This document shows, piece after piece, positions 17,698-64,000 of a stretch of DNA of 64,000 nt. The notes under the pieces are model-generated. The model did not search any database and had not been told where the DNA came from. It worked only from the letters and a program-made list of their open reading frames with translations. Every line of letters begins with the position of its first letter. Positions within the stretch are counted from its first letter, which is position 1. Origin of the DNA: Anaerolineae bacterium (GTDB taxonomy: Bacteria > Chloroflexota > Anaerolineae > CG2-30-64-16); contig JBBQRS010000012.1 of assembly GCA_038214535.1 (NCBI GenBank), forward strand, positions 517 to 64,516. The letters are read 5' to 3'. A program made the position numbers and the translations under genes.

Positions 17698-17726
17698 TTG
17701 ACTGAAGATAGGCGCTATGTTAAGAT
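17698..17726 (+). promoter_or_regulatory. Candidate sigma70-type promoter (TTGACT-17 bp-TAAGAT)
   Basis: Near-consensus -35 and -10 hexamers with 17-bp spacing, in the 600-bp intergenic region upstream of the glycan locus. Confidence 0.3.
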
Positions 17727-18192
17727 GACTTTTGTGTGTGATGCGGATCGAGTTGCCGTCGGCTCATCCCAATGGTCTGTTGCATTGCACCAGAGATTCT
17801 CATAGAAGAGCTTACCCGAAGATGCCTGATAAGGGTCAAGCGTTGTCGCTGACCATTACGCCTGAAAAACTCCCGCGCGCCCTGCCACTGAGAGCGACTG
17901 GAATTGGGCGTCAATATTTGGACTCAGTTCGGGTTGGCTTCATCGCTTTCACCTCTACAGCCACAAGCATTCGGCGAACGTCCCAGTCCATTCATACCGT
18001 CCCGTCAGGAGTCCTCGCGCCGAGATGGCGCGCGCCGGATGGGTGGTCTCTTTCCCGGCCATACGCGCGGCTGTTGCAGCTCGCAGTTTAGCTCCAGCGC
18101 GCGACACATCGAACACTTACCGTTCACCCGCACACCCTCCGGTGCTGCGGCGCGGCAGCGCCTGCCCACTTACCTTTCAAACCGAGAGGCCC

Positions 18193-18954: not shown

Positions 18955-19027
18955 GCCGGAGAATCGGCCCCGGCCCCATGCCAGCCAGCCTGCCCCAATC
19001 ATCGGGTGGGTCAGGGGGGAACGAATT

Positions 19028-20286: not shown

Positions 20287-20541
20287 CCATATCCTAAGCG
20301 TACAGTGAGGGATGCCCCCCTTTGAAACTGGTCTCTTCAGAATGATGTGAGGTGTGATGTGTCGGAACAAACAACGAAAAAGCCGGCTGGCAGTGTAGAG
20401 TGGACTGAACTACCACCTGAAATCAAGGCGAACCTGGGCACCCGGCGCGTACCGCCTCTGCCCGCCGCGCGCTTTCCTGACGCCGGCGCCGCCGTGCAAA
20501 CCCTGACGTCATCCACGCGGCCGGCCGGCAGCGTAGATATC

Positions 20542-22028
<1,487 letters not shown>

Positions 22029-22032
<4 letters not shown>

Positions 22033-46470: not shown

Positions 46471-48786
46471 ATGACCCAAAACAACTTCACTGTCTGTCCA
46501 TATCTCGGCATGTCGGGAGAGCGCACCGTCGTGCGCACCGAACCCGATCTGATGCACCGTTGTTTCGCGCAAAGTCCTGCCGGCCAGCCCGATCTCGACC
46601 ATCAGGCTCGTTACTGCCTGAGCGCCAATTATCCGGCCTGCTCGATCTACAAACAATACGTCGAGCCGGAAACCGAAGAGCTTGAAGAAGACGAAGAAGA
46701 GACGCGCCAGGGAATGAGCTCCGCCGCGCGTCTGGCCCTCTTGTTGATTCCCATCGCATTGTTGCTCACCCTGGCCTTACTCTACTTCCGAGACCTGGCA
46801 TCCGCCCCCACGCCGGTTGCGATCGAAGTCGCTCAACCGACCCAGGCGTCTCCAATCCCGACGCAACCACCCGTTGCGACCACCGATTCTTCTCAGCCGC
46901 AACCGATTGCCGCAGTGACGCTGGTTCGCCCCGAAACGGTCACGCCGGCGCCAGGTGGTCAGGTCTTCTCGGCCACGCCGTTACAGGGTGAAGTCGGCTG
47001 GTGGACCAGCAGTGAGGCGGATAGCAACCACGTCTCCGATTCTTATCTCTATGCCGGATACTACGAAGGAAATTCATTCCTGTCGGCCGTGCGGTTCGAC
47101 CTCAAAGGCGCCCCACGCGGCGCGCCGATCAGCGACGGAACCATCCAACTGACGGGCTTACTGGACGACCGCTTCAACCCGGGCTCAGGCGGAACGTGGT
47201 CCGTTCAACTGATCCCCGGCAAAGCCTTGCCGCCGTTGCAACAGGTCAACTTCCAGACATTGCTCAACACCCCGGCGCAAATGACCCTTTTCCCTGAGCT
47301 TTATCCTGCCGACCTGGGCGTCGGTCAAGTCAACATCGTGAACCTCGACGCATCGGCGCGTTCTTGGCTCCAGGAGCAAATCCTGCTCGGCGAAACCGAA
47401 ATCATCGCTCGCATCACCGGGCCAGGCGGCGGTGATTCGCTCTTCGCCTGGGATAGCGGAGACGGCCCCGCGACGGCCGGTGAAGCGCCGCGGCTCATTC
47501 TCAGCCTCGACGCTCCGCCGCCGACCGCGCCGCCCCTGCCGACCGATGTCTTCCTGGTCGCCACGCTGACGCCTACGCCTGAAAACGTGCTTACCGCGGC
47601 CGCAGAGATTGCCCTGAGCACCCAGCAAGCGCTCGACGGCGCATCGGGGTCACAGATCATCCCCGTTTACACGCCGACGCTCGTGCCTGAAAATCTGGCA
47701 ACCGTGCAAGCCGGTCGGTTGCTCGCGGGGCTACCGCTTTACGTGGTCTACACACCCGTCCCCGCGAATGGGGCGACCGCGACGGCCAACGCATTGGAGG
47801 CGACGGCTATCGCCGTAACCACGGGCACATTCACGCCGGTGCCGCCCGATGCAGTGACCCCAATCATCGTGCTGCCCACGCCCATGCCGGAAAACGTTGC
47901 GACGGCGGCGGCGCAGAAAGCCATCACCACCGCGCAGGCCGCCTCAGTCGGCACGGTCACCCCCTTGCCGCCGAATATCGTCATGGCAACACGCACGCCG
48001 ACCGCGATCGTCGTCACTCGCACACTGACCCCGGAAAATCAACAAACGGCGGCGATCAATTCGCTCATCATGACGGCTGTCGCAGCGACAACCGGCACCT
48101 TCACGCCCTTCCCGCCCAACGTGGTGACGGCCACGCCCAGCCCGTTGCCGACCGCCACGCCAAAGGCACCCTTCCTGATCTATCTCGATCAGATTACACC
48201 CGATCCGACGGCAACCGGCGACGGCAGGATGCCTCAAGAACTGCGCGGCAAGGTTCTGTTCAAGAGCGACCGCGAAGATGGAACTCGCATCATGGCCGTG
48301 GACCCCGCGACCGGACGGCAGGCCAACCTCGCCAGCCCCTGGCCGTACAGCGAAGCCGAACATATCCAGTTGACTTCGCCTGATGGCCGTTTCGTCCTCA
48401 CCGTGGAATATGACGATATCGGGCGCACCCAGATTATCTCCACGGACGTCTCGACCGGCGCACGTCAAAAGATCACGAACAACCGCCTGGGCGCGTATGA
48501 GCCTGCATGGTCGCCCACTGCCAACAGGATCGCTTTCGGCTCGTGGGATTCGGGCAACGAAGACATCTACACCATGGATCCCGATGGTTCCAACGTGATT
48601 CAAATTACCACGAATGGCAGCCAGGATCGCTATCCTTCGTGGTCGCCCAACGGCTCACAGATCGTCTATTGGTCCTCGCGTGACACGGGCCGCAGACAAC
48701 TGTGGGTGATGAACGCCGACGGCAGCAATCCGCGGCGGATGCTGACCTCCAACTATAATGACTATAATCCCATCTGGGTAAGATGA
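46471..48786 (+). CDS. Membrane-anchored protein: N-terminal Cys-rich (zinc-finger-like) cytoplasmic domain, single TM, Pro/Thr/Ala-rich tandem repeats, C-terminal TolB-like (PD40) beta-propeller
   Basis: N-terminal CPY..HRC..YC..AC pattern. TM segment ARLALLLIPIALLLTLALLYF. About 45-aa PEN-x-TAAA...TGTFTP-PPN repeats. C-terminal repeats of SP(D/N)G..(I/V).(F/Y) typical of PD40/TolB blades. Confidence 0.5.
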   Translation: MTQNNFTVCPYLGMSGERTVVRTEPDLMHRCFAQSPAGQPDLDHQARYCLSANYPACSIYKQYVEPETEELEEDEEETRQGMSSAARLALLLIPIALLLTLALLYFRDLASAPTPVAIEVAQPTQASPIPTQPPVATTDSSQPQPIAAVTLVRPETVTPAPGGQVFSATPLQGEVGWWTSSEADSNHVSDSYLYAGYYEGNSFLSAVRFDLKGAPRGAPISDGTIQLTGLLDDRFNPGSGGTWSVQLIPGKALPPLQQVNFQTLLNTPAQMTLFPELYPADLGVGQVNIVNLDASARSWLQEQILLGETEIIARITGPGGGDSLFAWDSGDGPATAGEAPRLILSLDAPPPTAPPLPTDVFLVATLTPTPENVLTAAAEIALSTQQALDGASGSQIIPVYTPTLVPENLATVQAGRLLAGLPLYVVYTPVPANGATATANALEATAIAVTTGTFTPVPPDAVTPIIVLPTPMPENVATAAAQKAITTAQAASVGTVTPLPPNIVMATRTPTAIVVTRTLTPENQQTAAINSLIMTAVAATTGTFTPFPPNVVTATPSPLPTATPKAPFLIYLDQITPDPTATGDGRMPQELRGKVLFKSDREDGTRIMAVDPATGRQANLASPWPYSEAEHIQLTSPDGRFVLTVEYDDIGRTQIISTDVSTGARQKITNNRLGAYEPAWSPTANRIAFGSWDSGNEDIYTMDPDGSNVIQITTNGSQDRYPSWSPNGSQIVYWSSRDTGRRQLWVMNADGSNPRRMLTSNYNDYNPIWVR

Positions 48787-50862: not shown

Positions 50863-52314
50863 ATGACATTACTTCCGAAGAGAGCAAACTTACTCCTGAT
50901 TGTGGTCCTGCTGTTAAGCTTCACGCTCGCCATCCCGGTGAGCGCGCAGGCTCCGACGCCGGAACCCAACGACATCGAGCTCGCCCTGGTGCTTGACGGT
51001 TCGGGCAGCATCGGGATCGATAACTTCAGAATCATGAAAGAAGGCATCGCGGCGGCCCTCGCTAACCCCGCATGTGTGCCGGAAGATGGTTCCATCTGGG
51101 TTTCCGTAACCCAGTTCGGTGCGGACGCGACGGTCGAGATGCCGCTGACGGAAGTCACGGTCGCCAGCATTGCCGGCATTGCCGCGACGGTGGCAAACAT
51201 TCCCTACAAGGATTCCTTCACCAATTATCAGGCAGGCATCGAGACCGGCTTGAGCACTTACGCGGGTACCGGTCGCCGCCAGGTCATGAACTTCGCAACC
51301 GATGGTCAGCCGAATACAGGCGACATCCAGCACACACCCACCTTGCGTCAGATGGCGATTGACGCCGGTGTTGATGAACTGGACATCGAAGCCATTGGCG
51401 ACCCTGAGATCCTTAACATCCCGCGCCTTCAGGACCTTGCCCACCCGCAGCCGGGCGTCCTCTGGGAAAATACGCCCCTGCCGACTGCACCGGGTTGGGT
51501 AAAACGGGTCGAGAATTACAATGAGTTCGCGGACAGCATCTGCGCCAAGTTCGTTTCGATCGCCAGCGGTCGCCTGGTCGTCAGCAAGGTCACGAACCCC
51601 AGAGGCGCGGGCCACGTGTTTGACTTCTCATTGACCGGCCCCAATACGAACGAAACGTTCCAGTTGAAGGACGGCGAAAGCTTCAGCACCGAGGCGAACC
51701 TGGCGGACGGAACCTACACGGTTACCGAAATCTACAATGACGACGGAGCCGGGGGCGAAGACGGCTGGACGACAGCCATCTCCTGCGACACCGCGCCGCC
51801 CACCACCTCAGAGACCAACACGATTGACGTGATGGTTGACGGCCCGGTGGAGTGCATCGTCACCAATACCGCCGATCCGACATCGGTGCAACTGGCCGAT
51901 TTCAGCGGCGCCGTCAAGCCGGATCACATCCTGCTGAGCTGGGAAACCGTCAGCGAAGTGAACAACCTGGGCTTCAACGTCTACCGTAGCGACGCCGCCA
52001 ACGGCGCGCAGAGCCTCATCTCGGCCACGATGATCCCGGCCAACAACCCGGGCGCGACTCAGGGCTCGACCTACAGCTTCCAGGACACCAACGTGCAGCC
52101 GGGCGTAACCTACTACTACTGGCTCGAAGATCTGGACGCAACTGGCCAGGCGAGCAAAGCCGGCCCGGTGGCCGTGACCTTCCTCGGCCCCACGTCCGTC
52201 GGCCTGAATAGCTTCACCGCTGCGGCTTCGTCGGCTCCCGCCCTGCTCGGGTTGGGGGGCGCAGCAATGGCTGCCCTCGCCGGCCTCGCCGTCGCCCGTC
52301 GCAAACAAGACTGA
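50863..52314 (+). CDS. Secreted vWA-domain protein with C-terminal PEP-CTERM-like sorting signal variant
   Basis: Signal peptide, the MIDAS-like LVLDGSGSI motif, a central beta-sandwich region, and the C-terminus SAPALLGLGGAAMAALAGLAVARRKQD (hydrophobic helix plus basic tail). Confidence 0.5.
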   Translation: MTLLPKRANLLLIVVLLLSFTLAIPVSAQAPTPEPNDIELALVLDGSGSIGIDNFRIMKEGIAAALANPACVPEDGSIWVSVTQFGADATVEMPLTEVTVASIAGIAATVANIPYKDSFTNYQAGIETGLSTYAGTGRRQVMNFATDGQPNTGDIQHTPTLRQMAIDAGVDELDIEAIGDPEILNIPRLQDLAHPQPGVLWENTPLPTAPGWVKRVENYNEFADSICAKFVSIASGRLVVSKVTNPRGAGHVFDFSLTGPNTNETFQLKDGESFSTEANLADGTYTVTEIYNDDGAGGEDGWTTAISCDTAPPTTSETNTIDVMVDGPVECIVTNTADPTSVQLADFSGAVKPDHILLSWETVSEVNNLGFNVYRSDAANGAQSLISATMIPANNPGATQGSTYSFQDTNVQPGVTYYYWLEDLDATGQASKAGPVAVTFLGPTSVGLNSFTAAASSAPALLGLGGAAMAALAGLAVARRKQD

Positions 52315-52346: not shown

Positions 52347-52535
52347 ATGGAGAAAATCACACACACGCAGCCGATGGCGACCAGGCAAGTCTGGGAAGAA
52401 CCCGCCATCATCCTTGAACGCCCGTTGGAAGTCGTCGCCCAGGATGGCCCAACCGATGATAACTGGGTCGCACCCAGCCCGTGGCGTCTGCCCGGCCCGC
52501 TTGCCGCATCCGGCGGCGCCGGCTTCTGCCAGTAA
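52347..52535 (+). CDS. Candidate RiPP precursor peptide, copy 1 (62 aa)
   Basis: Strong RBS AAGGAG 10 nt upstream. The C-terminal 47 aa are identical to copy 2 at 54391 despite many synonymous nucleotide differences. A terminator follows. Confidence 0.6.
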   Translation: MEKITHTQPMATRQVWEEPAIILERPLEVVAQDGPTDDNWVAPSPWRLPGPLAASGGAGFCQ

Positions 52536-52561
52536 TCACCTGCCCTGACTCGTAACATGGT

Positions 52562-52596
52562 GCGCCGGGCCTTGCGGCCCGGCGCATTTGTTTTTT
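52562..52596 (+). terminator. Rho-independent terminator (GCGCCGGGCC-TTGC-GGCCCGGCGC + ATTTGTTTTTT)
   Basis: A perfect 10-bp GC stem followed by a U-run, 27 nt after the precursor stop. Confidence 0.65.
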
Positions 52597-52867: not shown

Positions 52868-53155
52868 ATGTCTCAAACCGATACCCGCAGGCCATCGCAT
52901 CATTCACGAACGGCATCGCGCGTCTTCAGCGGTGAAGCCGTGGTCATTACCCCTGCCGAAAACGTCGTGCGTATGCTCAACCCGATCGGTTCCCGAATCT
53001 GGGAACTGGCCGACGGCACGCGCACGATTGACGACATAGCGTCCGTGCTCACCGGCGAATTCGATGTAGACTTCGCTCACGCCCATCAAAGCGCAACAAC
53101 CTTCGTCGAAGACCTGGCTGCCAGAGGCTTGATCGCATTCGAGGAGAGCGAATGA
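52868..53155 (+). CDS. PqqD-like RiPP recognition element (RRE) protein
   Basis: About 95 aa. The motif GEAVVITPAENVVRMLNPIGSRIWELADGTRTIDDIASVL matches the PqqD family pattern (E.V.L.....y.LN..g..IWeLldG..t..eI). GGAG RBS. The stop overlaps the rSAM start. Confidence 0.6.
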   Translation: MSQTDTRRPSHHSRTASRVFSGEAVVITPAENVVRMLNPIGSRIWELADGTRTIDDIASVLTGEFDVDFAHAHQSATTFVEDLAARGLIAFEESE

Positions 53156-54345
53156 GCGGCATTCCTCTGATGCTCACGCCACCCACAGAGCCTCTGCATC
53201 GCGGTTTCGAGGCTTGCGGCTCAGACAGCGCCCCACACGATGCCTTCGAGGCGCTGCTGGCGCGGATGCGTGACGAGTTCATCCCCTTCACCGTGCTTTG
53301 GGAGATGACCCACACCTGCAACCTGGACTGCATCATGTGCTACAACGTGAAGCAGTCGCAGCCCGAGCTCGCGACCGATGAAGCGTTGGAGTTGCTCGAA
53401 CAGATGGCGCAGGCAGGGACGTTACGGCTCATCATGACCGGCGGTGAAATCCTGGCCCGCCGTGACTTCTTCACCATCGCCAACCGGGCACGCGCCCTGG
53501 GTTTTGCGCTGGACCTGAAAACCAACGGCAGCCTGCTCACGTCCGAATCTGCGGATCGCATGGCCGCGTTGGAACCGGTGCAGGTGGAAATCAGCCTGCT
53601 TGGCGCGACCACGGCGACGTTCGACGCCATCGCGCAAAGCAAGGACACGCTGCGGCGCGTCCTGCGCGGCGTCAAGCTCCTGAAAGAGCGCAGCGTCCGC
53701 GTCAAGCTCAATACCCTGCTGATGGACCTCAATTTCGCCGAGCGTGAGCAGATGTTCGAAATCGCAAGCGAGCTTGGCGTGGAGTACGAACAGGCCATCA
53801 AGATATCCCAGTCTGATGACGGCTCGGACAAGGCCGGCAGCCACCAGATCAGCCGCGCGCAGATCACCGACACGCTGGTCACCTACGAAGCGCCGTTTGC
53901 GCCGATTCAACTCACGCCCAACCGGCGCACCTGTAAAGTGGGCTTGTCTTCGTGTCTCATCAGTCCCTACGGCATCGTTTACCCGTGCGTCGAATTGCGC
54001 ATCCCCGCCGGCGATTTGCGCAAACGCTCGTTCGGTGAGATTTGGGCCGACGCGCCGATTTTTAGCAATTTACGGGCAAACCACACATTCAAGAATCTGC
54101 CGGAATGCCAGGTCTGCCCCATCAACACCTATTGCGAGGGGCGCTGCGCCGGCCTGGCATGGAAAGAGCACGGCGATCCTTACGGCGGTCACATGCTGGC
54201 CTGCCGGCACGCGCAAGCGCGCTTCGCCCAACAGAACCCGGATGAAGCCATCCCTGAGACGCCGTTGCAGGCGCGCCTCAAGCGTGAGCGCGGCGGCGAA
54301 CAAGAAACCGTCAAACACCAACCGATTATGCTTGTTGACATGTAA
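53152..54345 (+). CDS. Radical SAM / SPASM-domain peptide maturase
   Basis: The CNLDCIMC (CX3CX2C) motif after an N-terminal extension, and a C-terminal Cys-rich SPASM region (CKVGLSSC...YPC...CQVCPINTYCEGRC). Confidence 0.8.
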   Translation: MSGIPLMLTPPTEPLHRGFEACGSDSAPHDAFEALLARMRDEFIPFTVLWEMTHTCNLDCIMCYNVKQSQPELATDEALELLEQMAQAGTLRLIMTGGEILARRDFFTIANRARALGFALDLKTNGSLLTSESADRMAALEPVQVEISLLGATTATFDAIAQSKDTLRRVLRGVKLLKERSVRVKLNTLLMDLNFAEREQMFEIASELGVEYEQAIKISQSDDGSDKAGSHQISRAQITDTLVTYEAPFAPIQLTPNRRTCKVGLSSCLISPYGIVYPCVELRIPAGDLRKRSFGEIWADAPIFSNLRANHTFKNLPECQVCPINTYCEGRCAGLAWKEHGDPYGGHMLACRHAQARFAQQNPDEAIPETPLQARLKRERGGEQETVKHQPIMLVDM

Positions 54346-54390: not shown

Positions 54391-54579
54391 ATGGACACAA
54401 AACCATATCCGCAAAATGTCGTAACCAAACGAACGTGGGAAGAACCCGCGATCATCCTGGAACGCCCGCTCGAGGTCGTCGCGCAAGACGGGCCGACCGA
54501 CGACAACTGGGTCGCGCCCAGCCCGTGGCGTTTGCCCGGCCCCCTCGCCGCATCCGGTGGCGCCGGTTTCTGCCAATAA
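54391..54579 (+). CDS. Candidate RiPP precursor peptide, copy 2 (62 aa)
   Basis: AAGGAG RBS. The residue 16-62 region is identical to copy 1 (WEEPAIILERPLEVVAQDGPTDDNWVAPSPWRLPGPLAASGGAGFCQ). The N-terminal 15 aa differ. Confidence 0.6.
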   Translation: MDTKPYPQNVVTKRTWEEPAIILERPLEVVAQDGPTDDNWVAPSPWRLPGPLAASGGAGFCQ

Positions 54580-54671: not shown

Positions 54672-57536
54672 ATGAAAAACCACAAGCGCGCCTGGGGCGT
54701 CATCTCGGCTATCCTCCTGGTGTCCATGCTCGTCACACCCGGATATGCCGGCAGCGCCGCGCAGGCTTCCGAACCGATCACACTCAGCGTCCGAACTCCC
54801 GAATATCAACTTGACGCGGCCGGTCTGCGCGTGCCCGGCTATACCACAAATCGTACGCCCGGCGCGCCGGCCCTTCCCGTCTATCAAACCATCGTTGAGT
54901 TGCCCCCATCGGGCGATTTCCAATTAGTGGTGACCACGCCCGGCGCTCAGGAGATGGCGACCTCTGTCACCATCCCCGCCGCGCCGTCACCCGATCCATC
55001 CGCCGATCATCCTCGCACCGGCTCCGATCCGGATGAGTTGCCCACCGACGCCGCCATGATCGTGCAACCCGACCCCGCGATCTACGACGTGGACGCCTTC
55101 TATCCGGGCCAGCCGGTCATCGCGGGCGAGGTGCAAATCCAGCGCGGCCGCCGGTTCCTGCCGCTCCAGGTGTTCCCCTTCCAGTACAACCCGACCACCG
55201 GCGCGCTGCGTTATCTGCCTGATATTGGCGTCACCGTGGAAATCACGCCCGCCGACAGCCAGGCAACCAACATTGCTGCACCCGATCTGGCACAGGTCAA
55301 CCCGCCTGCCGTGAACGGCGCCGCGCTGCGCATCTACATCTCGCAGCGTGGGATGCATCGGCTCACGTACAGCGACCTATCCGCCGCTGGCGTGCCGTTG
55401 GCCTCGACCAACGTCTCGGCCTTCGCCATATACTATCTCGGCCAGCCGGTGGACATCCAGGTGCTGGACCGCAACGGCAACAACCGGTTCGACGCCGATG
55501 ACCTGGTCATTTTCTACGCCGAGCCCTATCAGGGCCGCTACATGACCCGCAACGTCTACTGGTTCAGCTATGGCGCGGGCAGCGGGGCGCGGATGCAAAC
55601 GCGCGCCCGCACACCCTCGGGCGGGGAACCTGTCGTAACATCCATCACCCAGACCTCCCGCGTCGAGGTGGACAAGGTCTACGTGAGCGACATTCAGCGC
55701 CCGATAGACGAAGACCATTACTATGACAACTCGCTTTACGCCAACGCCGCCTACCCCACCGTAACCCGGACCTATAGCCTGCCTGTGGACGACCTGGTGA
55801 CCTCAGGCGCCGCATCGCTGCGCGCCAGCGTCTACGGGGGTAAAGTGCAGGGCGCCGCCACCGACCAATCCATGGCGATCCGTGTCAACGGGAACAACGC
55901 CGGAACGTACAAGTGGAAAGGCAAAACGGGATATACCGCCTCGACGGGCGTCTCCGGCGCGTGGCTCACCGATGGCGTCACCCAGGTTACGCTGGAAGCC
56001 GCGTTGAGCCAACTACCGGCGCTATCGTACTACTGGATTTACCCCGATTGGGTCGAACTGACCTATACCGCCACCGCCGACGCCGAAGCCGATCGCATCT
56101 ACATCGAAGCCGCGCCCGCGGGGGCTAATAAAGTCGTAGTGACAGGTTTCTCGTCGCCTGACGTACACGTGTACGATGTGCGCAACCCGCGCCAACCCGT
56201 CCAACTGACGACAGTGCAATCTCAGCCTGCGGGTGGAAGCAACACCATCCACTTCTGGGACGCCGATCTACCGAACCCGAGTTACTATCTGGCAACCGAA
56301 GCCGCACTGCTCGCGCCCGCCGAGATCCAGGCCGATACGCCATCCAGTTGGCAGTCGCCTTCCCGCAACGCGTCTTACATCGCCATCGTCCACAGCGACC
56401 TGTGGAACGCCGTCCAACCGCTACTCGACTTCCGGCAGGCCGAAGGGCTCGCCGTCGCCAAAGTCAACATCCAGGACGTTTACGACGAATTCAGCTACGG
56501 ACTGGTTGACCCCGAGGCCATCCGCGCATTTCTGACTTACGCCTATCAAAACTGGCGCAGCGACGGCAGCCCCCCCGAATACGTCATGCTTGTCGGCGAT
56601 GGGCATCACGATTTCAAGAACGCCGAAAACTCGACGCTCAAGAATCTGATCCCGCCCTACCTCGTGGACATAGACCCGTGGATCGGCGAAACCGCGGCGG
56701 ACAATCGTTTCGTCAGCGTGGACAGCCCCACAGACTTCCTGCCCGAAATGCACATCGGTCGGGTCTCCGCGCAGGATGCAGCAGGCGTCAACGCCTTCGT
56801 CAACAAGGTACTGGCCTACGAAGGCGCGCCCGGCGGGGCGTGGCAAAGCAACGTCGCCTTCATCGCAGACGACTGCAATAACGCGGTGGGCGACTTTAAC
56901 GCCATCAGCGAACTGATCCGTAAGAACTGGTTGCCCGCGCAATACAACGCATCCAGGACTTACTATCGCGTGCCGACGGCGGGCGACAACTGCCCCAATG
57001 CGAACTACACCGACCCGGCGGCGATGAAGAACGCCATCAAGACCGTCTACAACGGCCAGAATCTCATGTTACAGTGGTTCGGGCACGGCTCGCGCTTCCG
57101 CTGGGGCTATTCTTCCAGCCTCTTCAATTACGAAGATATCCCGGCGTTGGCCCCGAACACCGTTTGGCCCGTAGTGATGCACTACACGTGCTACACCGGT
57201 TACTTCCACAACGTCTATCAGAATCTGCAATCGCTGGCCGAAACGGAGTTGACCACCGCAAACCGGGGTTCCGTCGCCAGCTACGCCGCCACCGGTCAAC
57301 ACCTGGGCGTGGACGAACTGGTGATGAACGAGGGCGTCAACAAGGCCCTGTTTTATGATCGCCTGCCGCGGATCGGTCAGGTCATAGACTCGGCCCGCTA
57401 CTTCTACTTCGCAAACTCGCCGGTCTACCTCGACCTGATTGACTCTTCGGTTCTGTTCGGCGACCCGGCGCTCAAGGTCAAGTTGCCGGCGGCCATGGTC
57501 AACGTCAGCACGTACTTGCCAATGATCTCGCGGTAA
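54672..57536 (+). CDS. Secreted clan CD cysteine peptidase, C25 (gingipain)-like family, with large N-terminal propeptide/beta-rich region
   Basis: Signal peptide MKNHKRAWGVISAILLVSMLVTPGYAGSAA. Catalytic-dyad-like motifs WFGHGS (His) and HYTCYTGYF (Cys) in the C-terminal third. A GTG at 54660 is an alternative start. Confidence 0.5.
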   Translation: MKNHKRAWGVISAILLVSMLVTPGYAGSAAQASEPITLSVRTPEYQLDAAGLRVPGYTTNRTPGAPALPVYQTIVELPPSGDFQLVVTTPGAQEMATSVTIPAAPSPDPSADHPRTGSDPDELPTDAAMIVQPDPAIYDVDAFYPGQPVIAGEVQIQRGRRFLPLQVFPFQYNPTTGALRYLPDIGVTVEITPADSQATNIAAPDLAQVNPPAVNGAALRIYISQRGMHRLTYSDLSAAGVPLASTNVSAFAIYYLGQPVDIQVLDRNGNNRFDADDLVIFYAEPYQGRYMTRNVYWFSYGAGSGARMQTRARTPSGGEPVVTSITQTSRVEVDKVYVSDIQRPIDEDHYYDNSLYANAAYPTVTRTYSLPVDDLVTSGAASLRASVYGGKVQGAATDQSMAIRVNGNNAGTYKWKGKTGYTASTGVSGAWLTDGVTQVTLEAALSQLPALSYYWIYPDWVELTYTATADAEADRIYIEAAPAGANKVVVTGFSSPDVHVYDVRNPRQPVQLTTVQSQPAGGSNTIHFWDADLPNPSYYLATEAALLAPAEIQADTPSSWQSPSRNASYIAIVHSDLWNAVQPLLDFRQAEGLAVAKVNIQDVYDEFSYGLVDPEAIRAFLTYAYQNWRSDGSPPEYVMLVGDGHHDFKNAENSTLKNLIPPYLVDIDPWIGETAADNRFVSVDSPTDFLPEMHIGRVSAQDAAGVNAFVNKVLAYEGAPGGAWQSNVAFIADDCNNAVGDFNAISELIRKNWLPAQYNASRTYYRVPTAGDNCPNANYTDPAAMKNAIKTVYNGQNLMLQWFGHGSRFRWGYSSSLFNYEDIPALAPNTVWPVVMHYTCYTGYFHNVYQNLQSLAETELTTANRGSVASYAATGQHLGVDELVMNEGVNKALFYDRLPRIGQVIDSARYFYFANSPVYLDLIDSSVLFGDPALKVKLPAAMVNVSTYLPMISR

Positions 57537-57583: not shown

Positions 57584-58777
57584 ATGCAGCATCGGCTGCG
57601 TCCCTATTTTTTTTGGAAAGCGCCAATGGCCGCTAACTCAGTATTCGATCCCTTTGAGCTTTCAACGCGAGGCTCTCTTCCACCGAAGTGGGTGGACTGG
57701 CTGGGCCACACGCTGCGCGCGGAGGGCGCGCCGCCTGCGCCCGATCACCACCTCCTCGCCGAATGGCGCGCCGTGCTGCCCGCACTGGACGTTCACGCCA
57801 TCACGCCGCTGCTCTACCTGCGCCTGCGCGACGCCCGCCTCCTGCAAGCCTTGCCGCCGGAATTTCGCGATGCGCTCTACGTCACATTTCAAGACAACGC
57901 CTTGCGCTCCCTCGTCTTCGAACACGAACTTGAATCCATCATTGCGACCTTCGCGCGTGAGGGCATCCCCCTGATCTTGCTCAAGGGGCTTGCCACCGGG
58001 CGGCTGGTCTACGGCAGTCCCGCCGAACGCCCCATCGGAGACCTCGATCTGCTGGTTCCTTTCGACGATATGGCGCGGGCGCGCCGCACCCTGCGCCAAG
58101 CCGGCTACGAGAGCATCGGCTGGGCCGGGCTGGATCGTGTGGCGCGCTGGCAACACGCCTTCCGCTCGGAGATGCCCATGCTCTGCACCCGGCCCGACCG
58201 CTACGGCCTGGTCACCGAGTTGCACTGGTCGCTATTAGAGATTCCCTACTACATCCAGTGCATCCCTATGGCGGATGTTTGGGCTGCCGCCGCGCCGGTA
58301 TCCGGCCACCCCGGCGTCAGCGTCCCCGACCCGGCCACCCTGCTGATCCACAGCGCCGCGCACCTGGCGCTACATCACAGCCGCGAGCTGCGCCTGATCT
58401 GGTTGCTCGATCTCGACCGGCTCGCCCGCTGGCAGGCAATGGATTGGGCCGGGGTGATCGCATGGACGGAAACCTGGGGCCTCGGCAGGGCCGTCCACAC
58501 GGCTCTGAGCGTCTCACAGCGCTGGCTTGGCACGCCCGTCCCGCCAGACGCCCTTGCGCAACTCTCGCGGCTCACACATAGCGCCGCGGGCGATGCCACC
58601 TGGGGACTGGGCGATGAACAGGCCGGCCGCTCGCGCCGTCGCGCCGTCGTCAGTTGGCAATTGCTGAATGGGCGCGACCGCCTGCGTTACGCTGCCTGGC
58701 TGGGGTTTCGCTTGCTCCTGCGCCCCTTCGAGCTTGCCGGCCGCCCGGACAAACGCGCGAACATGGAGGTTCACTGA
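57584..58777 (+). CDS. Nucleotidyltransferase-fold protein (PF14907-like uncharacterised nucleotidyltransferase)
   Basis: Pol-beta NTase signature PIGDLDLLVP...D. This family is recurrently encoded beside HPr-kinase-like genes in RiPP (lasso) clusters. Confidence 0.5.
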   Translation: MQHRLRPYFFWKAPMAANSVFDPFELSTRGSLPPKWVDWLGHTLRAEGAPPAPDHHLLAEWRAVLPALDVHAITPLLYLRLRDARLLQALPPEFRDALYVTFQDNALRSLVFEHELESIIATFAREGIPLILLKGLATGRLVYGSPAERPIGDLDLLVPFDDMARARRTLRQAGYESIGWAGLDRVARWQHAFRSEMPMLCTRPDRYGLVTELHWSLLEIPYYIQCIPMADVWAAAAPVSGHPGVSVPDPATLLIHSAAHLALHHSRELRLIWLLDLDRLARWQAMDWAGVIAWTETWGLGRAVHTALSVSQRWLGTPVPPDALAQLSRLTHSAAGDATWGLGDEQAGRSRRRAVVSWQLLNGRDRLRYAAWLGFRLLLRPFELAGRPDKRANMEVH

Positions 58778-58778
58778 A

Positions 58779-59621
58779 ATGGCTGACGCGCTCACGCTCG
58801 ACATCAGCGGTCTGAAGATCTCCGTCGGCATCCCCCATCCCGATTGGCGCCCCGGCTTGGCCGAACGCTATGCCGCCTTCCTGAGCGACGACTCGCCGCG
58901 CTGGCGCGTGGATTTGCGCCACGACCCGGCGCTCACAGACACCGAGCATCCCTGGCTGCGCCACCACGGCGCGCTTTCGGTCTTCCGGGTTAACGCCTAC
59001 GCCGGCTGGATAGATATGGCGCGCCGCGCCGGATCGGTCGCCACGCCTTCCCACGCGCGGGCCGTCTCCGCCCTCGAACGCACGTTGGCCTACGTCTGTA
59101 TGCAGGCCCTGCCGCGTGAATACGATGCGCTCCTGCTCCACAGCGTCGGCGTTGAGGTGGGCGGACAAGGTCACGTTTTCTTTGGGCCGTCCGGCGCGGG
59201 CAAAACCATGATTGCGCGTTTGAGCGCAGGCTTCGGGCGTATCCTCAGCGATGAAAGCATCATCCTCCGTGACACCGGCGACGGCATCGCCCTCGACAGC
59301 ACCCCCTTCTGGGGCCTCAGCACGCCCCCGGAGATGGTGCATCGGGTGCGCCGCACGCTACCCCTCACGGCGCTCTACACGCTCGTCCACGCCCCCACCT
59401 TCGAATTGGAACGTCTGCGCCCGTGGGAGGCCGTCTCGACTTTGCTGAACACCGAGAAGGTCGCCGTAGAGCGCGTCGAAAGCGCCACAGTCTGGCTCTC
59501 CATCGTCGAGCGCATCCTGGCGCGCGTGCCGGTCTACCGGCTCAGTTTTCCGCCAACGGCCGATCTCTGGCCGTTCCTCAAATCCGCGCTCCCTGAACGT
59601 GCGTCGCCGCCGGCCGCCTGA
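58779..59621 (+). CDS. HPr kinase/phosphorylase C-terminal-domain-like P-loop protein (putative peptide kinase)
   Basis: P-loop GPSGAGKT preceded by LLLHSVGVEVGGQGHVFFG, like the HprK C-domain. GGAGG RBS. The start overlaps the upstream stop region. Confidence 0.5.
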   Translation: MADALTLDISGLKISVGIPHPDWRPGLAERYAAFLSDDSPRWRVDLRHDPALTDTEHPWLRHHGALSVFRVNAYAGWIDMARRAGSVATPSHARAVSALERTLAYVCMQALPREYDALLLHSVGVEVGGQGHVFFGPSGAGKTMIARLSAGFGRILSDESIILRDTGDGIALDSTPFWGLSTPPEMVHRVRRTLPLTALYTLVHAPTFELERLRPWEAVSTLLNTEKVAVERVESATVWLSIVERILARVPVYRLSFPPTADLWPFLKSALPERASPPAA

Positions 59622-59624: not shown

Positions 59625-60089
59625 ATGCCCACGTCTTCCATCCCGCAGCACCGCGAGGCCGCGGCCTGGGTCCCCCTCCTGCTGGAGATCCTCAACCAGA
59701 AGGGGCGCTGCCGCTGGCCCTTACGCGGCCAGAGTATGCTGCCCACCCTGCCCTCCGACTGCGAGATTGACGTCGCGCCGCTGCCGTTCGACGTGCCGCT
59801 CGGTTCGCTGATCGTCTTCGCCAACGGCGACGCGCTGGTCGCCCATCGGCTGGTGCGGCGCGCCGGCGCCAAATGGATCGCGCAGGGCGACCACCGTCGC
59901 AGTCCCGACAGAGGGCTTGATCCCGCCCAGGTATTGGGCATCGTGCGCGCAGCCTACCTTCCGAACGGGGAACAATGCTGGCCGCCGGCCTTGTCCGGCG
60001 CGCTGGCGTGGTATTGGATTGCGCGCTATCATATGTATCGAGCGGCGCGCTTCGCCATTCGCGCGATGTACGGTCGTCCCAGAGGATAG
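59625..60089 (+). CDS. S24/S26-family (signal peptidase I / LexA-like) peptidase
   Basis: GQSMLPTL Ser-nucleophile motif and a downstream conserved basic residue region (AHRLVRR). 154 aa. Confidence 0.45.
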   Translation: MPTSSIPQHREAAAWVPLLLEILNQKGRCRWPLRGQSMLPTLPSDCEIDVAPLPFDVPLGSLIVFANGDALVAHRLVRRAGAKWIAQGDHRRSPDRGLDPAQVLGIVRAAYLPNGEQCWPPALSGALAWYWIARYHMYRAARFAIRAMYGRPRG

Positions 60090-60291: not shown

Positions 60292-63200
60292 ATGTCGCGT
60301 CTCTTTAAGCTCATAGGGATGATCATACTGGCAGGTCTGCTGGGCGGTTGCACTGCGGGCCTGACACCAGACAGCCCGCCCACACAATCTTCCAGCACAG
60401 GCACAACGTCCGTGCGCGTCATCCGAGCGGCGCAGTTCACGGATTCCGGCCCGATCAGTGAGGGCGGCCCGACAACCGGGCTGCAATTCAGCCTGACCCG
60501 GGGTCAGGAACAGCCGGAGTCTTCCGCGCCCATCACGCAGGCGGTTACTTCGCCGCTCAAGCCGGCCGAGGTGGACGCCCTCCTGCAACGCCTGCCGCCC
60601 CTGGCGAAGGCGACCGGCGATGTGCAAGACCTGGCGCTGCCGCCAACCACCATTCCGCCACCGCGCACCGGCGCCACAGTCAATGAACCTTTCCCGCCGC
60701 CCGCCACGCCGCCTCCCACCGTGCTGCCAGAGAACACGCCGCTCGAGGTCTTGCGCTACGCACCCGAAGGCGACGTGCCGCTGGCCGCCAACCTCAGCGT
60801 GACCTTCAACCAGCCCATGGTCGCGCTGACCGGTCTGCAAGACCTGGGTAACGCGCCGCCGCCCGTGCAACTCTCACCGCTGCCGCCCGGCCAATGGCGT
60901 TGGGTGGGCACAAACACGCTGCTCTACGAACCGGACCCGCGCTTCCCCATGGCGACCCGTTACACCGTCGAAGTTCCTGCGGGCACAAAATCGGCCACAG
61001 GTAACACGCTTGCCAGGGCCGTCACCTGGACCTTCACCACGCCGCCACCGCAGGTGTTGCAATTCTCGCCCACGGGCAGCGGCCTGCCCCTCGACCCACT
61101 GATGGTCGCAACCTTCGACCAGAGAATTGACCCCGATGCCGTACTCGCCGCGATCCAGGTGAAAGCCAATGGCGCAGCCACGCCGATCCGACTGGCGACC
61201 GCCGCCGAACTCGACGGCGACAGGACCGCCGGCGCACTGATCGAGGACGCAGGCGAAGACCGCTGGATCGCCTTCCGCGCGCAAGAGCCATTCGCACCTG
61301 CCGCTTCCGTAACGGTTACGTTTGGCTCCGGCCTGCCCTCCGCGGAAGGCCCGCTGAAGACCGAGAAGCCCCAGGAGTTCAGCTTCGAGACGCACGGCCC
61401 GCTCGCCGTGGTGCGCAGCCAATGCGGATGGGATAGCAACTGCCCGCCGCTCATGCCCTGGAACATCGAGTTCAGCAACCCGCTGAATCCTGACGTATTC
61501 GACGCGTCGCAAGTGAGCATCACCCCGGAGCTTCCGAATACCGTCATCCAGATTTTCGGCAACACGCTCCAGATTCAGGGCCGCAGCCAGGGACGCATGC
61601 AGTACAGCGTCCGCCTGAGCAGAACGATCCGCGATATTTACGAGCAAACGCTCGTTGAAGACCAGACCGTCGTCTTCAACGTTGGCGAGGCCAACCCGGC
61701 GATCTGGGCCGCAGGCACGCCCTTCGTCGTGCTCGACCCGGCCCTGCCGCCGCGCTTCTCCGTCTTCACGGTCAACTTCCCCCGGCTCGATGTCAAAGCC
61801 TACGCGGTCAAACCGGAGGACGGGCAAGCTTTCCAGCTTCATCTGCGATCCTACTATCGCGATGAAAAGCCGACCACACCGCCCGGACGCCTGGTCCTTT
61901 CCAAAAAGATCGAGGTCAAGTCGCAACCGGATCAACTGACGGAGACGACGATTGACCTCGACCCGGCCCTGAAGGACGGCAAGGGTCAACTCGTCCTCAT
62001 CATCACCCCGGAGACGACCGGCCTGACCCGGCTTCTCGAAATGTTCGGGGGTAGGCCGCCCGTGATCACGACGTGGGTTCAGGCCACCCAGATCGGCCTC
62101 GACGCATTCGTGGATAACACGGAAATGGTTGCCTGGGCCACCTCGCTGGCCGACGGCAAGCCGCTGCCGGACGTAGCGTTTGATCTCCTTGACGTGAATG
62201 GCAAGTCGCTCGGCGCGGGCGCGCGTTCGGATGCAGACGGAACCGCTCGCATTGCCCTCCGCCCGCAGACCGCCGCGACCCTGGTCGCGCGCCTGGGCGA
62301 CGATATGGCGATGCTGCCGGCGAACACCTACATGTGGGGCGACGGCGGCTGGACGGCGCAACCCGTCCGCGACCGACTGGCTTGGCACGTCTTCGATGAT
62401 CGCGGCATGTATCGCCCCGGCGAGGAAGTCCACGTCAAGGGCTGGCTCCGCCGGATCGGCGGCGGCGAGGACGGCGACGTTGGCGCGCTGCGCGGCGGGG
62501 TGGAATCCGTGAGCTACCGCGTCATGGATGCGCAGGGCAACCAGGTGGGGCAGGGTTCCGCCGATCTCAGCCCGCTCGGCGGGTTCGATTTGGCTTTCAC
62601 GTTGCCTGAGGGCATCAACCTGGGCTACACCACACTGGATCTGACCGCCGTGGGCAACCTGAATGACTTGGACGGCGCAAACTACGGCCACAACTTCCAG
62701 GTACAGGAGTTCCGTCGCCCCGAGTTTGAAGTCAAAACATCCGCGTCCGAAGGCCCGCACTTCGTCGGCGACGCCGCGACGCTGGAAGTGAGCGCCGCCT
62801 ACTATGCCGGCGGCCCTCTGCCCAACGCGCAGACCACCTGGCAGGTGAGCAGCGCCGCCGGTCAGTACTCGCCCCCCGGCTGGGACGATTTCACCTTCGG
62901 CCAATGGATCCCGTGGTGGCGCGGCTATCAGCCCTCGTTCCCTGCCATGGATAACACGCAGACTTTCGACGGGCTCACGGACGCCGCGGGCGTTCATCGG
63001 CTCCAGATCAACTTCGAGTCCGTCGAGCCGCCCGGCCCCAGCACGGTCACGGCGCAAGCCACCGTGATGGACGTCAACCGGCAGGCGTGGACTGCGCAGA
63101 CTACCCTGCTGGTGCATCCTGCATCGCTCTACGTCGGCCTGCGCAGCGACCGCATGTTCGTCGAGCGCGAAGAGCCGCTGCCTATCGAAGCCATCGTCAC

Positions 63201-64000
63201 CGACCTCGACGGTCGCCCCACAACGGGCGTGAAGATCACCATGCTCGCCGCGCGCATGGAGTGGCGCTACAAGAACGGTGAATGGCGCGAGGAAGCCGTC
63301 GCCCCGCAAAACTGCACCGTCGTATCGGCGGCGCAGCCCGTGCGTTGCACCTTCGAGACGCCGGAGGGCGGAACCTATCGTATCACGGCGGAAGTGACCG
63401 ACCCCGCAGGCCGCCGCAACCGCACGCAGTTCGACCGCTGGGTCAGCGGCGGCGGTGCGCCGCCCGCCCGCCAACTCGAGCAGGAAGAAGCCACGTTAAT
63501 CCCCGACCACAAGGACTATCAACCGGGCGATGTGGCCGAAATCCTGGTGCAATCGCCGTTCACCCCGGCAGAGGGTGTACTCACCCTGCGCCGGTCAGGC
63601 ATCATCAGCACGCAACAGTTCACCATGAACGAAGCCACCACGATCCTGCGCATCCCGATCGAGGAGGCCCACATCCCCAACCTCTACATGCAGGTTGACC
63701 TGGTCGGCTCCGCCCCGCGCCTGAACGCGAACGGCGAGGTAGATGAGAGCCTGCCGCGTCGGCCCGCCTTCGCATCGGGCCAACTCGCTCTGACCATCCC
63801 GCCGCTCAGCCGCACCCTCTCGGTGACGGTCGCGCCGCGCGACGAAAAGCTCGAGCCGGGCGGCGAAACCTCGATAGACGTCACCGTCCTGGATGCGGCC
63901 GGTCGCCCACAGGAACGCGCAGAGGTCACCGTGGTCGTCGTAGATGAGGCCATTCTCGCTCTCAGCAACTACCAGCTTCCCGACCCCATTGCGACCTTCT
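60292..64000 (+). CDS. Alpha-2-macroglobulin-family large lipoprotein, 3'-partial (continues beyond window)
   Basis: Lipobox LAGLLGGC after a signal peptide. The reading frame is uninterrupted for more than 1230 codons to the window end, with MG-domain-like beta-sandwich repeats. GGAGGG RBS. The 866-aa minus-strand ORF here is the antisense artifact. Confidence 0.65.
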   Translation, partial: MSRLFKLIGMIILAGLLGGCTAGLTPDSPPTQSSSTGTTSVRVIRAAQFTDSGPISEGGPTTGLQFSLTRGQEQPESSAPITQAVTSPLKPAEVDALLQRLPPLAKATGDVQDLALPPTTIPPPRTGATVNEPFPPPATPPPTVLPENTPLEVLRYAPEGDVPLAANLSVTFNQPMVALTGLQDLGNAPPPVQLSPLPPGQWRWVGTNTLLYEPDPRFPMATRYTVEVPAGTKSATGNTLARAVTWTFTTPPPQVLQFSPTGSGLPLDPLMVATFDQRIDPDAVLAAIQVKANGAATPIRLATAAELDGDRTAGALIEDAGEDRWIAFRAQEPFAPAASVTVTFGSGLPSAEGPLKTEKPQEFSFETHGPLAVVRSQCGWDSNCPPLMPWNIEFSNPLNPDVFDASQVSITPELPNTVIQIFGNTLQIQGRSQGRMQYSVRLSRTIRDIYEQTLVEDQTVVFNVGEANPAIWAAGTPFVVLDPALPPRFSVFTVNFPRLDVKAYAVKPEDGQAFQLHLRSYYRDEKPTTPPGRLVLSKKIEVKSQPDQLTETTIDLDPALKDGKGQLVLIITPETTGLTRLLEMFGGRPPVITTWVQATQIGLDAFVDNTEMVAWATSLADGKPLPDVAFDLLDVNGKSLGAGARSDADGTARIALRPQTAATLVARLGDDMAMLPANTYMWGDGGWTAQPVRDRLAWHVFDDRGMYRPGEEVHVKGWLRRIGGGEDGDVGALRGGVESVSYRVMDAQGNQVGQGSADLSPLGGFDLAFTLPEGINLGYTTLDLTAVGNLNDLDGANYGHNFQVQEFRRPEFEVKTSASEGPHFVGDAATLEVSAAYYAGGPLPNAQTTWQVSSAAGQYSPPGWDDFTFGQWIPWWRGYQPSFPAMDNTQTFDGLTDAAGVHRLQINFESVEPPGPSTVTAQATVMDVNRQAWTAQTTLLVHPASLYVGLRSDRMFVEREEPLPIEAIVTDLDGRPTTGVKITMLAARMEWRYKNGEWREEAVAPQNCTVVSAAQPVRCTFETPEGGTYRITAEVTDPAGRRNRTQFDRWVSGGGAPPARQLEQEEATLIPDHKDYQPGDVAEILVQSPFTPAEGVLTLRRSGIISTQQFTMNEATTILRIPIEEAHIPNLYMQVDLVGSAPRLNANGEVDESLPRRPAFASGQLALTIPPLSRTLSVTVAPRDEKLEPGGETSIDVTVLDAAGRPQERAEVTVVVVDEAILALSNYQLPDPIATF

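Follow-up and report, generated by a model that had tools for sequence, protein, structure and literature searches.

A PF14907 nucleotidyltransferase and an HprK/PEPCK-fold kinase-like protein paired in a non-lasso radical SAM peptide cluster of a Chloroflexota genome

A stretch of 64,000 nucleotides from the genome of an Anaerolineae bacterium (contig JBBQRS010000012.1), here termed the window, encodes side by side a nucleotidyltransferase-fold enzyme of family PF14907 and a P-loop protein resembling HPr kinase. Eight genes on one strand form a cluster, in the order precursor peptide, recognition element (RRE) for a peptide that is made on the ribosome and modified after translation (RiPP), radical S-adenosylmethionine (SAM)/SPASM enzyme, second precursor, C25-family peptidase, PF14907 enzyme, kinase-like protein and S26-like peptidase. 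A first-pass annotation of this DNA had described the pair as one of the lasso-peptide tailoring type lying in a non-lasso radical SAM cluster, and we confirm that description; the cluster is RRE-dependent and its radical SAM enzyme is of the SPASM type. We consider it probable that the pair is the tailoring part of a non-lasso RiPP cluster, i.e. a Chloroflexi counterpart of the linear polyphosphorylated peptide (LPP) module of Bacillota to which a radical SAM enzyme and a C25 peptidase have been added. The features of the cluster are the following.

52347-52535, plus strand: precursor peptide gene 1, 62 aa, with a leader containing WEEPAIILERPLEVVA and the predicted core QDGPTDDNWVAPSPWRLPGPLAASGGAGFCQ
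52559-52588, plus strand: terminator-like hairpin, a 13-bp stem with 10 GC pairs followed by a T-tract (pattern match only)
52868-53155, plus strand: discrete RRE of the PqqD family, 95 aa (PF05402, E = 8.9e-16)
53152-54345, plus strand: radical SAM/SPASM peptide maturase, 397 aa (PF04055, 2.3e-20; PF13186, 9.8e-10)
54391-54579, plus strand: precursor peptide gene 2, 62 aa, encoding the same sequence as gene 1 from Trp16 on
54672-57536, plus strand: secreted C25-family cysteine peptidase, PorU-like, 954 aa (PF01364, 9.1e-74)
57626-58777, plus strand: PF14907 (NTP_transf_5) nucleotidyltransferase-fold enzyme, 383 aa (Pfam match, DxD motif, public gene call)
58779-59621, plus strand: HprK/PEPCK-fold P-loop kinase-like protein of the ScmC family PF27840, 280 aa (fold, residues, family assignment)
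59625-60089, plus strand: Ser/His peptidase of the S24/S26 clan, 154 aa, a candidate leader peptidase analogous to LppS

The radical SAM gene overlaps the stop codon of the RRE gene by 4 nt, a single nucleotide separates the PF14907 gene from that of the kinase-like protein, and 3 nt separate the latter from the peptidase gene; 45-92 nt lie between the remaining enzyme-gene pairs. Precursor gene 1 is followed by 332 nt that include the hairpin, which may be a read-through attenuator that raises the ratio of precursor to enzymes. Both members of the pair were found on the plus strand where they had been placed, with the motifs GDLDLLVP (58037-58060) and GPSGAGKT (the Walker A motif, 59184-59207). 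The longest open reading frames (ORFs) for the two genes are 57584-58777 and 58668-59621; in the public annotation of the identical contig they begin at 57626 and 58779. Adoption of these starts removes a 110-nt overlap and leaves the 1-nt gap. The 5′ extensions of the longest ORFs were rejected, as the public annotation does not adopt their overlapping starts.

The 57626-58777 product matches the NTP_transf_5 Pfam model with E = 2.2e-50 and 172 bits (cut-off 31.2 bits) over positions 3-249 of the 249 in the profile, so that the assignment to PF14907 is upheld over the full profile. Its GDLDLLVP sequence includes a DxD motif that is invariant in nine locus homologues. In the biosynthesis of pseudomycoidin the nucleotidyltransferase-like PsmN is needed for the addition of one or two hexoses to the phosphate, and mutant data show that its D134 and D136 are essential (PMC6993621); the DxD of the window enzyme corresponds to these residues. 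A polymerase-beta nucleotidyltransferase of toxin-antitoxin type was considered and rejected, the PF14907 profile being matched in full length with no match to PF01909 returned. A literature search on PF14907 gave nothing relevant, only unrelated work on phosphonates. A tblastn search of plasmids with the protein gave weak partial matches only, in Deinococcus plasmids. One is to a 448-aa gene annotated as a lasso peptide biosynthesis B2 protein (6860-8203 of locus L050, D. wulumuqiensis plasmid pDrdI), which has a PqqD gene nearby and matches residues 80-145 of the window protein with 42% identity; the same partial match occurs in D. radiodurans plasmids. This suggests that the 448-aa gene encodes a fusion of PF14907 and B2 sequences.

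The second member of the pair had been called HPr-kinase-like. This holds at the level of the superfamily, where fold and residues agree, and does not hold at that of the Hpr_kinase_C family (PF07475), for which the proposed confirmation fails with no Pfam match at E ≤ 0.01. TIGR00679 is likewise absent from its NCBIfam matches. Its best NCBIfam models are TIGR04249 ScmC (E = 5.5e-6; 25.9 bits against a cut-off of 125) and TIGR04352 HprK_rel_A (1.4e-5, far under the cut-off), while the precomputed Pfam assignment is PF27840 'ScmC' for the protein and for all 120 of the homologues listed. Because there are more than 200 homologues, of which the best 120 listed span E-values from 1e-183 to about 1e-68, the pair is not a chance pattern. 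A profile search of 1.84 billion representative sequences returned 6,024 relatives at E ≤ 1e-10. Among 60 distant relatives TIGR04249 was matched by 55, TIGR04355 by 45 and TIGR04352 by 39, none of them at the cut-off. The kinases of LPP and paeninodin clusters are themselves labelled mostly TIGR04249 (67 of 152) and TIGR04352 (65 of 152; PMC13381572, Supplementary Data 2).

An AlphaFold2 model of the kinase-like protein built with 50 homologues has a pLDDT of 94 and a pTM of 0.90. In Foldseek searches of the PDB it is most similar to ATP-dependent phosphoenolpyruvate carboxykinases (PEPCK; E about 1e-8, TM-score about 0.54 on the query), followed by HprK/P structures at 3e-5 to 1e-4. The sequence profile finds the same families, with PEPCK at 0.005 and HprK/P at 0.022 and 0.09, around the P-loop only. 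His121, G136/S138/G141/K142, Asp158, Glu159 and an STPxWG motif are invariant in the alignment of 50 sequences. The order His ... GxSGxGK(T/S) ... (D/E)(D/E) is the layout of HprK/P, as in the L. casei enzyme. Asp158-Glu159 share both position and numbering with D158/D159 of PsmK, the double mutation of which abolishes phosphorylation (PMC6993621). Taken together, the predicted fold, the catalytic residues and the matches to ScmC and HprK-related models indicate that the protein is HPr-kinase-like at the superfamily level only. From its fold, active site and sub-cut-off matches it is therefore a member of a large, poorly curated HprK-related family and not HprK/P itself; identity with true HprK/P was rejected for want of a family match. 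Thus of the two identities that would have undone the original proposal, a true HprK and a toxin-antitoxin polymerase-beta enzyme, both were looked for and neither was found. No match to the kinase-like protein was obtained in plasmids by tblastn.

We note separately that one homologue (P0116, in loci L006-L008) is an orphan ScmC-family gene with no RRE, radical SAM or C25 gene nearby. It adjoins genes for the methylamine methyltransferases MtmB/MttB and a corrinoid protein, and is indexed in 85 blocks of the collection. Roles outside RiPP synthesis are therefore possible for the ScmC family, and its gene context suggests that it may have them.

The third gene of this group (59625-60089), a counterpart of the LPP leader peptidase, was not discussed in the first-pass annotation. 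Its family has the invariant motifs GxSMxPTL (with Ser37), AHR (His74) and GD (Asp89), together with Asp95, and 19 of 30 homologues match PF00717 (Peptidase_S24). A single-sequence search of the PDB gave nothing and a profile was needed for matches; these are to signal peptidase I (4me8, 0.014) and SEC11A/C (0.4), with the Ser, His-Arg and Gly-Asp aligned to those of SEC11A/C. The AlphaFold2 model (pLDDT 88.8) has the S24/S26 fold. NCBIfam matches within the family are weak, to the nickel superoxide dismutase maturation protease SodX (TIGR02754), archaeal-type signal peptidase I (TIGR02228) and SipW; TIGR02228 is touched by two of 28 homologues (1.3e-4), and the window peptidase itself matches no NCBIfam model. 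From the motifs and the modelled fold we assign the product as an S26-like Ser/His peptidase.

The two precursors provide information on what these enzymes might act upon. Twelve of their first 15 codons differ, and from Trp16 to the stop codon there are 18 synonymous and no non-synonymous changes. Such a pattern shows that both are translated and under strong purifying selection, and that selection begins exactly at the WxxP motif. A profile made from five precursors retrieved 53 homologues of 58-99 aa, and motifs were counted over 55 sequences. WxxP is present in all 55, within the leader consensus WxxPAI(V/I)LERxLxxxA|Q. At the end of the leader the -3 position is Val in 43, Ala in 11 and Ser in one (i.e. 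Val or Ala in 54/55), -1 is always Ala (55/55) and +1 is Gln in 54/55. (V/A)-x-A|Q is the textbook -3/-1 motif of signal peptidases and thus fits the S26-like peptidase.

In the core GPLxxS is found in 53/55, and a Cys near the C-terminus in 54/55, usually six residues past the Ser and one before the C-terminus. Both window precursors end in FCQ and not in Ser, as had been noted, and the kinase cannot act on a C-terminal Ser. Two internal serine residues had been offered as alternative targets. That of ASGG (Ser55) is the best candidate for phosphorylation, judged from the conservation of the GPLxxS Ser, since it is the only conserved hydroxyl residue; that of SPW is confined to the closest relatives of the window precursors and is not supported as the target.

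The remaining products of the cluster are an RRE, a maturase and a secreted peptidase. The best solved relatives of the RRE are 9x8z_B (a 'PqqD family protein'), the lasso B1 protein TbiB1 and 9x90_B (a 'lasso peptide biosynthesis PqqD family chaperone'). The radical SAM enzyme carries CX3CX2C at residues 56-63; other Cys residues, at 261-351, lie within the stretch matched as SPASM or shortly after it. It reaches no NCBIfam equivalog cut-off; its best peptide-maturase models are the sactipeptide maturase StsB (3.9e-35) and MftC (6.5e-34), and heme-pathway radical SAM models score higher. The C25 peptidase begins with a signal peptide (MKNHKRAWGVISAILLVSMLVTPGYAGSAAQA, read from the sequence), and its catalytic GH(G/A) and Cys do not vary among seven loci. 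It matches the PorU model NF033707 with 218.7 bits, under the cut-off of 420 (E = 1e-64, about 740 residues aligned).

For the surroundings we scanned 40 ORFs of the window between 1.5 and 64 kb, comprising most of the long plus-strand ORFs; several, mainly in the first 31 kb, were left out. None of the 40 matched the lasso B2 (PF13471, Transglut_core3) or C (PF00733, Asn_synthase) families, and the SGGxDS PP-loop motif does not occur in any of the six frames of the window. With no asparagine-synthetase-like or transglutaminase-like gene among the scanned ORFs and no such motif, the lasso B and C genes are therefore absent, as the first-pass annotation had held. The cluster lies at the 3′ end of a polysaccharide locus of roughly 30 kb (18-50 kb of the window) that encodes GT2 and GT4 glycosyltransferases, two Wzy-like proteins, a priming sugar transferase, Wzt, RmlD, epimerases and a Wzz/BY-kinase chain-length protein.

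The nearest named relatives of the window genes are in Chloroflexota metagenome-assembled genomes (Ardenticatenaceae, 'Chloroflexi bacterium', Caldilineales and Anaerolineales). Six related loci were compared with the window; EPS denotes exopolysaccharide.

L051 (kinase 82% identical): syntenic with the window from the BY-kinase gene to the macroglobulin gene downstream, with two precursors
L052: GT1, BY-kinase, PF14907, peptidase, kinase, RRE and precursor, in an EPS locus; no radical SAM or C25 gene within 9 kb
L005: PF14907, kinase, RRE, radical SAM, precursor and C25, outside any EPS context
L002 (Ardenticatenaceae, 10.4-Mb contig): peptidase, kinase, RRE, radical SAM, precursor and C25, without PF14907
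L011 (Nitrospirota, 24% identity; 373-11423): giant C25 protein, RRE, radical SAM, precursor, kinase and S24-like peptidase
L010 (Anaerolineales, 30% identity; 9944-19078): kinase, precursor, C25, peptidase, RRE and a second C25

L052 is by its gene content an LPP-like quartet. The window, L051 and L052 each have a BY-kinase gene immediately upstream of the cluster; L041, like L002 and L005, is in a non-EPS or undefined context. L002 is flanked by RelA/nSTAND and DsrE genes and has an ABC exporter 3 kb downstream, and L005 is flanked by genes for YceI and isocitrate dehydrogenase. PF14907 adjoins the kinase or peptidase gene in a further six loci (L013, L027, L034, L039, L040 and L046) and is 3 kb away in L041 and L042. 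There is no radical SAM gene within 10 kb on either side in L010, and the precursor there, YIKPAIVQELDLEARA|GSPLG..., has no Cys. Comparison of the loci thus suggests that the precursor Cys goes with the radical SAM enzyme, with L052 as the exception. The association of kinase and peptidase with the other cluster genes is strong, but not obligatory.

Some other properties of these loci should be recorded. The C25 domain of L011 ends a repeat-rich surface protein of 2,671 aa, and its precursor has a YEKPQL leader, three Cys residues and a C-terminal Ser like that of phosphorylated lasso peptides. In the L010 precursor the leader contains YxxPAIV, and the ARA|GS junction places a Ser at core position 2, near the position of the LPP phospho-Ser. 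A further locus (L015) has at 5469-6008 a lone S24/S26-like peptidase homologue, flanked on one side by a gene for a sugar epimerase and on the other by one for a GT87-like glycosyltransferase; for several kb around there is neither a kinase nor an RRE.

The closest described system is that of the LPPs, defined in Bacillota by Popov et al. (Nat Commun 2026; PMC13381572). LPP clusters (genes LppA/K/B/S/D/N) are embedded in capsular-polysaccharide loci. LppK adds several phosphates to Ser3 of the core, and LppS (catalytic residues S29/H68/D93) cuts the leader only when it is presented by LppB. NTP_transf_5 is the LPP 'putative NTP transferase', with 140 occurrences in Supplementary Data 2, and LPPs and paeninodins are stated to be restricted to Bacillota (PMC13381572). 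The window shares with LPP clusters a discrete PqqD-type RRE, an HprK-like kinase with the same best TIGRFAM labels, a PF14907 enzyme, a small signal-peptidase-like Ser/His/Asp candidate leader peptidase, a [Y/W]xxP leader motif and the lack of a lasso cyclase. The window, L051 and L052 (not L002 or L005) also share the setting in a polysaccharide locus next to a chain-length-determinant tyrosine kinase. With RRE, kinase, PF14907 and S26-like peptidase within a polysaccharide locus, the window therefore has the LPP quartet in an LPP-typical setting, and on the basis of gene content we regard these four proteins as the probable Chloroflexi counterpart of the Bacillota module.

There are clear differences. 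Clusters of the window type occur in Chloroflexota and Nitrospirota, whereas LPPs are reported only from Bacillota, and the window adds a radical SAM/SPASM maturase and a secreted C25 peptidase and has no MsbA-type exporter among the scanned ORFs. The LPP leader peptidase is of TIGR02228, a model that the window peptidase does not reach. The leader is YxxPxVLxHQxIxFET|xxS in LPPs, so that only [Y/W]xxPx[L/V/I] is shared with the consensus found here. The phospho-Ser is residue 3 of a 45-residue core in LPPs, while the candidate here lies 24 residues into a core of 31.

Likenesses to other systems are partial. With the paeninodin and pseudomycoidin lasso systems the window shares an HprK-like kinase with an acidic pair at 158/159, a nucleotidyltransferase-like enzyme with DxD and a W/YxxP leader with its RRE. 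By contrast it has neither B2 protease nor C cyclase, so that no lariat can form; nor does it have a C-terminal Ser, the residue that accepts phosphate in paeninodin and pseudomycoidin, and the leader would be removed by a serine peptidase. With the families catalogued as SynChlorMet (TIGR04248-04251) and HPr-rel-A (TIGR04352/04353/04355) it shares an HprK-related P-loop protein, a PqqD-family chaperone and radical SAM/SPASM, and their models are the best or near-best NCBIfam matches of the window kinase and RRE. The ScmC, ScmD, ScmE and ScmF equivalog scores (25.9 against 125, 40 against 100, 80.2 against 400 and 56.4 against 400) do not reach the cut-offs. The SynChlorMet cassette presumably consists of ScmC, the PqqD-like ScmD and two radical SAM/SPASM proteins, and HPr-rel-A has a PqqD chaperone of its own; the window has one radical SAM rather than two, and adds C25, PF14907 and the S26-like peptidase. 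Since these families are catalogued, an HprK-like protein beside an RRE and radical SAM is not unprecedented.

With sactipeptides and ranthipeptides there is agreement in the CX3CX2C motif, the SPASM domain, the RRE and a Cys-containing precursor. The single Cys of the window precursor differs from those classes and would allow at most one thioether; no radical SAM equivalog is reached, and our literature search found no phospho-tailoring genes in those classes. The C25 peptidase keeps the catalytic His and Cys of PorU, its best NCBIfam model, but falls below the cut-off for that model and no cargo of the CTD type was identified. PorU is the C25-family sortase of the type IX secretion system (T9SS), which Chloroflexota are not known to possess.

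A pathway can be proposed that accommodates these observations, in which gene content, conservation and folds come from the analysis and every chemical step is inferred. The RRE would bind the invariant leader motif WxxPAI(I/V)LER and hand the precursor to the enzymes. The radical SAM/SPASM enzyme would modify Cys61, close to the C-terminus, a thioether cross-link being the simplest product. The kinase would phosphorylate Ser55 of GPLxxS using ATP, possibly several times, as do LppK, PadeK and PsmK, the last of which polyphosphorylates the C-terminal Ser of pseudomycoidin (PMC6993621). The PF14907 enzyme would then extend or cap the phosphate with a sugar or nucleotide-derived group, in the manner of the PsmN-dependent hexosylation. 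Cleavage by the S26-like peptidase at (V/A)-x-A|Q (i.e. A31|Q32) would free a core of 31 residues, and the secreted C25 peptidase would trim or transfer the product after export.

Several points weigh against this reading. The kinase-like protein lies under every curated cut-off (with 25.9 bits against 125 for TIGR04249, and with no Hpr_kinase_C match), and it is by analogy that we assign its activity as a kinase, its target residue and the reaction of PF14907; the one experiment on an LPP system found LppN without activity in its heterologous host (PMC13381572). The candidate phospho-acceptor is far from the position of the LppA residue, at 24 of 31 rather than 3, and the leader motif differs from the LPP consensus. 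PF14907 is facultative, being absent within 10 kb in L002, L010 and L011, and the peptidase is alone in L015 and the kinase in L006-L008. The L052 precursor has its Cys with no radical SAM gene within 9 kb downstream, and the link between Cys and radical SAM is therefore imperfect. An MsbA-type exporter is a core LPP gene, and the 40 ORFs scanned include no ABC_membrane protein, the sole ABC ATPase there being Wzt (26843-28129). Leader removal could alternatively fall to the C25 peptidase.

These considerations bear on three other explanations. The ScmC-family protein might not be a peptide kinase at all, and instead serve as a scaffold or chaperone for the radical SAM enzyme and RRE, or phosphorylate a sugar, a lipid carrier, the C25 peptidase or the RRE, with PF14907 acting on that other substrate. 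We think this unlikely. It would agree with the wide margin by which all curated HprK-related models and Hpr_kinase_C are missed, with the structural rank of PEPCK, a small-molecule kinase (1e-8), ahead of HprK/P (3e-5), with the short name 'SCM_chp_ScmC' of TIGR04249, which marks ScmC as a conserved hypothetical, and with the homologue that stands alone beside methylamine methyltransferase genes in L006-L008. Yet the His, Walker A and Asp-Glu residues are invariant and line up with PsmK D158/D159, the same weak labels are carried by proven peptide kinases from LPP and paeninodin clusters, and an RRE and a precursor with one nearly invariant Ser almost always adjoin the gene. It is less probable still that the pair serves the exopolysaccharide locus (for example by decoration with phospho-sugars) and lies near the radical SAM RiPP genes by coincidence. 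The cluster does abut the polysaccharide locus, with the BY-kinase gene immediately upstream in the window, L051 and L052, and there are RiPP loci, L002 for example, that lack PF14907; but the kinase keeps its RRE, precursor and peptidase in L002/L005 where no polysaccharide genes are near, PF14907 adjoins the kinase outside an EPS context in L005, and in the window start and stop codons are coupled by gaps of 1 and 3 nt. Moreover, LPP clusters are likewise embedded in polysaccharide loci, yet their kinase acts on the peptide (PMC13381572).

That the product is a cryptic lasso peptide, made with a B2 protease and a C cyclase from other parts of the genome and with the pair in its classical tailoring role, we regard as highly improbable. 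The RRE does have lasso B1 proteins among its best solved relatives, the leader has the lasso-like motif [Y/W]xxPx[L/I/V] and Asp7 of the window core is a possible position for ring closure. The acidic residue is not conserved, however, at core positions 7-9, where many cores read QDGPPKGPMAAPGGF, and the N-terminus of the core is the invariant Gln, whereas the first residue of a lasso peptide is usually Gly, Ala, Ser or Cys. Nor is there a C-terminal Ser, and the cluster has a dedicated candidate leader peptidase of non-lasso type. The scan described above gave no B2 or C homologue among the window ORFs covered and no PP-loop motif in any frame, and no such homologue is listed in the 20-kb neighbourhoods of L002, L005, L051 or L052.

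A more speculative idea, to which we give little credence, is that the product, rather than being a free bioactive peptide, is a small peptide handle covalently joined to exopolysaccharide, on which the kinase and PF14907 build a phospho-glycosyl (phosphodiester) link at Ser55. We hold equally doubtful its remaining elements, that the radical SAM cross-link rigidifies the C-terminus and that C25 is an extracellular transpeptidase of the sortase type which attaches or releases the conjugate.

Other genes in and around the cluster deserve mention. Directly upstream of the first precursor, and syntenic in L051, is a gene for a 483-aa vWA-domain protein with a signal peptide (50863-52314). Its C-terminus, ...PALLGLGGAAMAALAGLAVARRKQD, resembles a sorting or anchor signal, with a hydrophobic helix and a basic tail, and the PorU-like C25 peptidase could have this protein as a substrate. 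The cluster is followed directly downstream, again with synteny in L051, by an alpha-2-macroglobulin-like gene (60292-64000; Big_5, bMG3, MG2 and A2M_BRD domains) that runs past the end of the window and has an N-terminal signal sequence of lipoprotein type, so that a protease inhibitor adjoins a cluster encoding a secreted protease. An 866-aa antisense ORF at 60874-63474 was rejected as a gene, being a shadow of the plus-strand macroglobulin gene. Within the polysaccharide locus a second, unrelated radical SAM protein (20347-22032, 561 aa, Radical_SAM domain at 293-452) is encoded beside a Wzy/TPR protein, and a 771-aa protein (46471-48786) that is Cys-rich at its N-terminus and has a Pro/Thr-rich linker leading to a C-terminal TolB-like beta-propeller is encoded between the glycosyltransferases and the BY-kinase.

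The first-pass annotation had proposed a new combination of RiPP chemistries. This was overstated, in that an HprK-like kinase with PF14907 and an RRE in the absence of lasso B and C is what constitutes the LPP system (PMC13381572). In addition, an HprK-like protein with PqqD and radical SAM/SPASM is already catalogued as the SynChlorMet cassette. A literature search for ScmC/SynChlorMet gave only unrelated uses of the acronym 'SCMC', and one combining radical SAM, HPr kinase, RiPP and PqqD found no paper describing such a cluster. We found no description of the LPP-like quartet together with radical SAM/SPASM and a PorU-like C25 peptidase in Chloroflexota and Nitrospirota. So far as we have found, what is undescribed is the occurrence beyond Bacillota, the combination with radical SAM/SPASM and C25, and a precursor family with a single conserved Ser and Cys.

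If our preferred reading of the pair as the tailoring part of an LPP-like cluster is correct, the module of kinase, PF14907 enzyme, leader peptidase and RRE would reach beyond Bacillota, as a mobile tailoring unit that can be combined with radical SAM chemistry. It would also provide a second, phylogenetically distant system for the chemistry of PF14907, with the short conserved substrate motif GPLxxSGGxGxC. The repeated placement of these genes by polysaccharide chain-length kinases, together with the PorU-like peptidase, hints at a connection between the peptide and a cell-surface polymer. Were the peptide handle to prove true, it would represent a peptide-primed or peptide-anchored polysaccharide system in Chloroflexota, with a logic like that of the attachment of T9SS cargo to anionic lipopolysaccharide (A-LPS).

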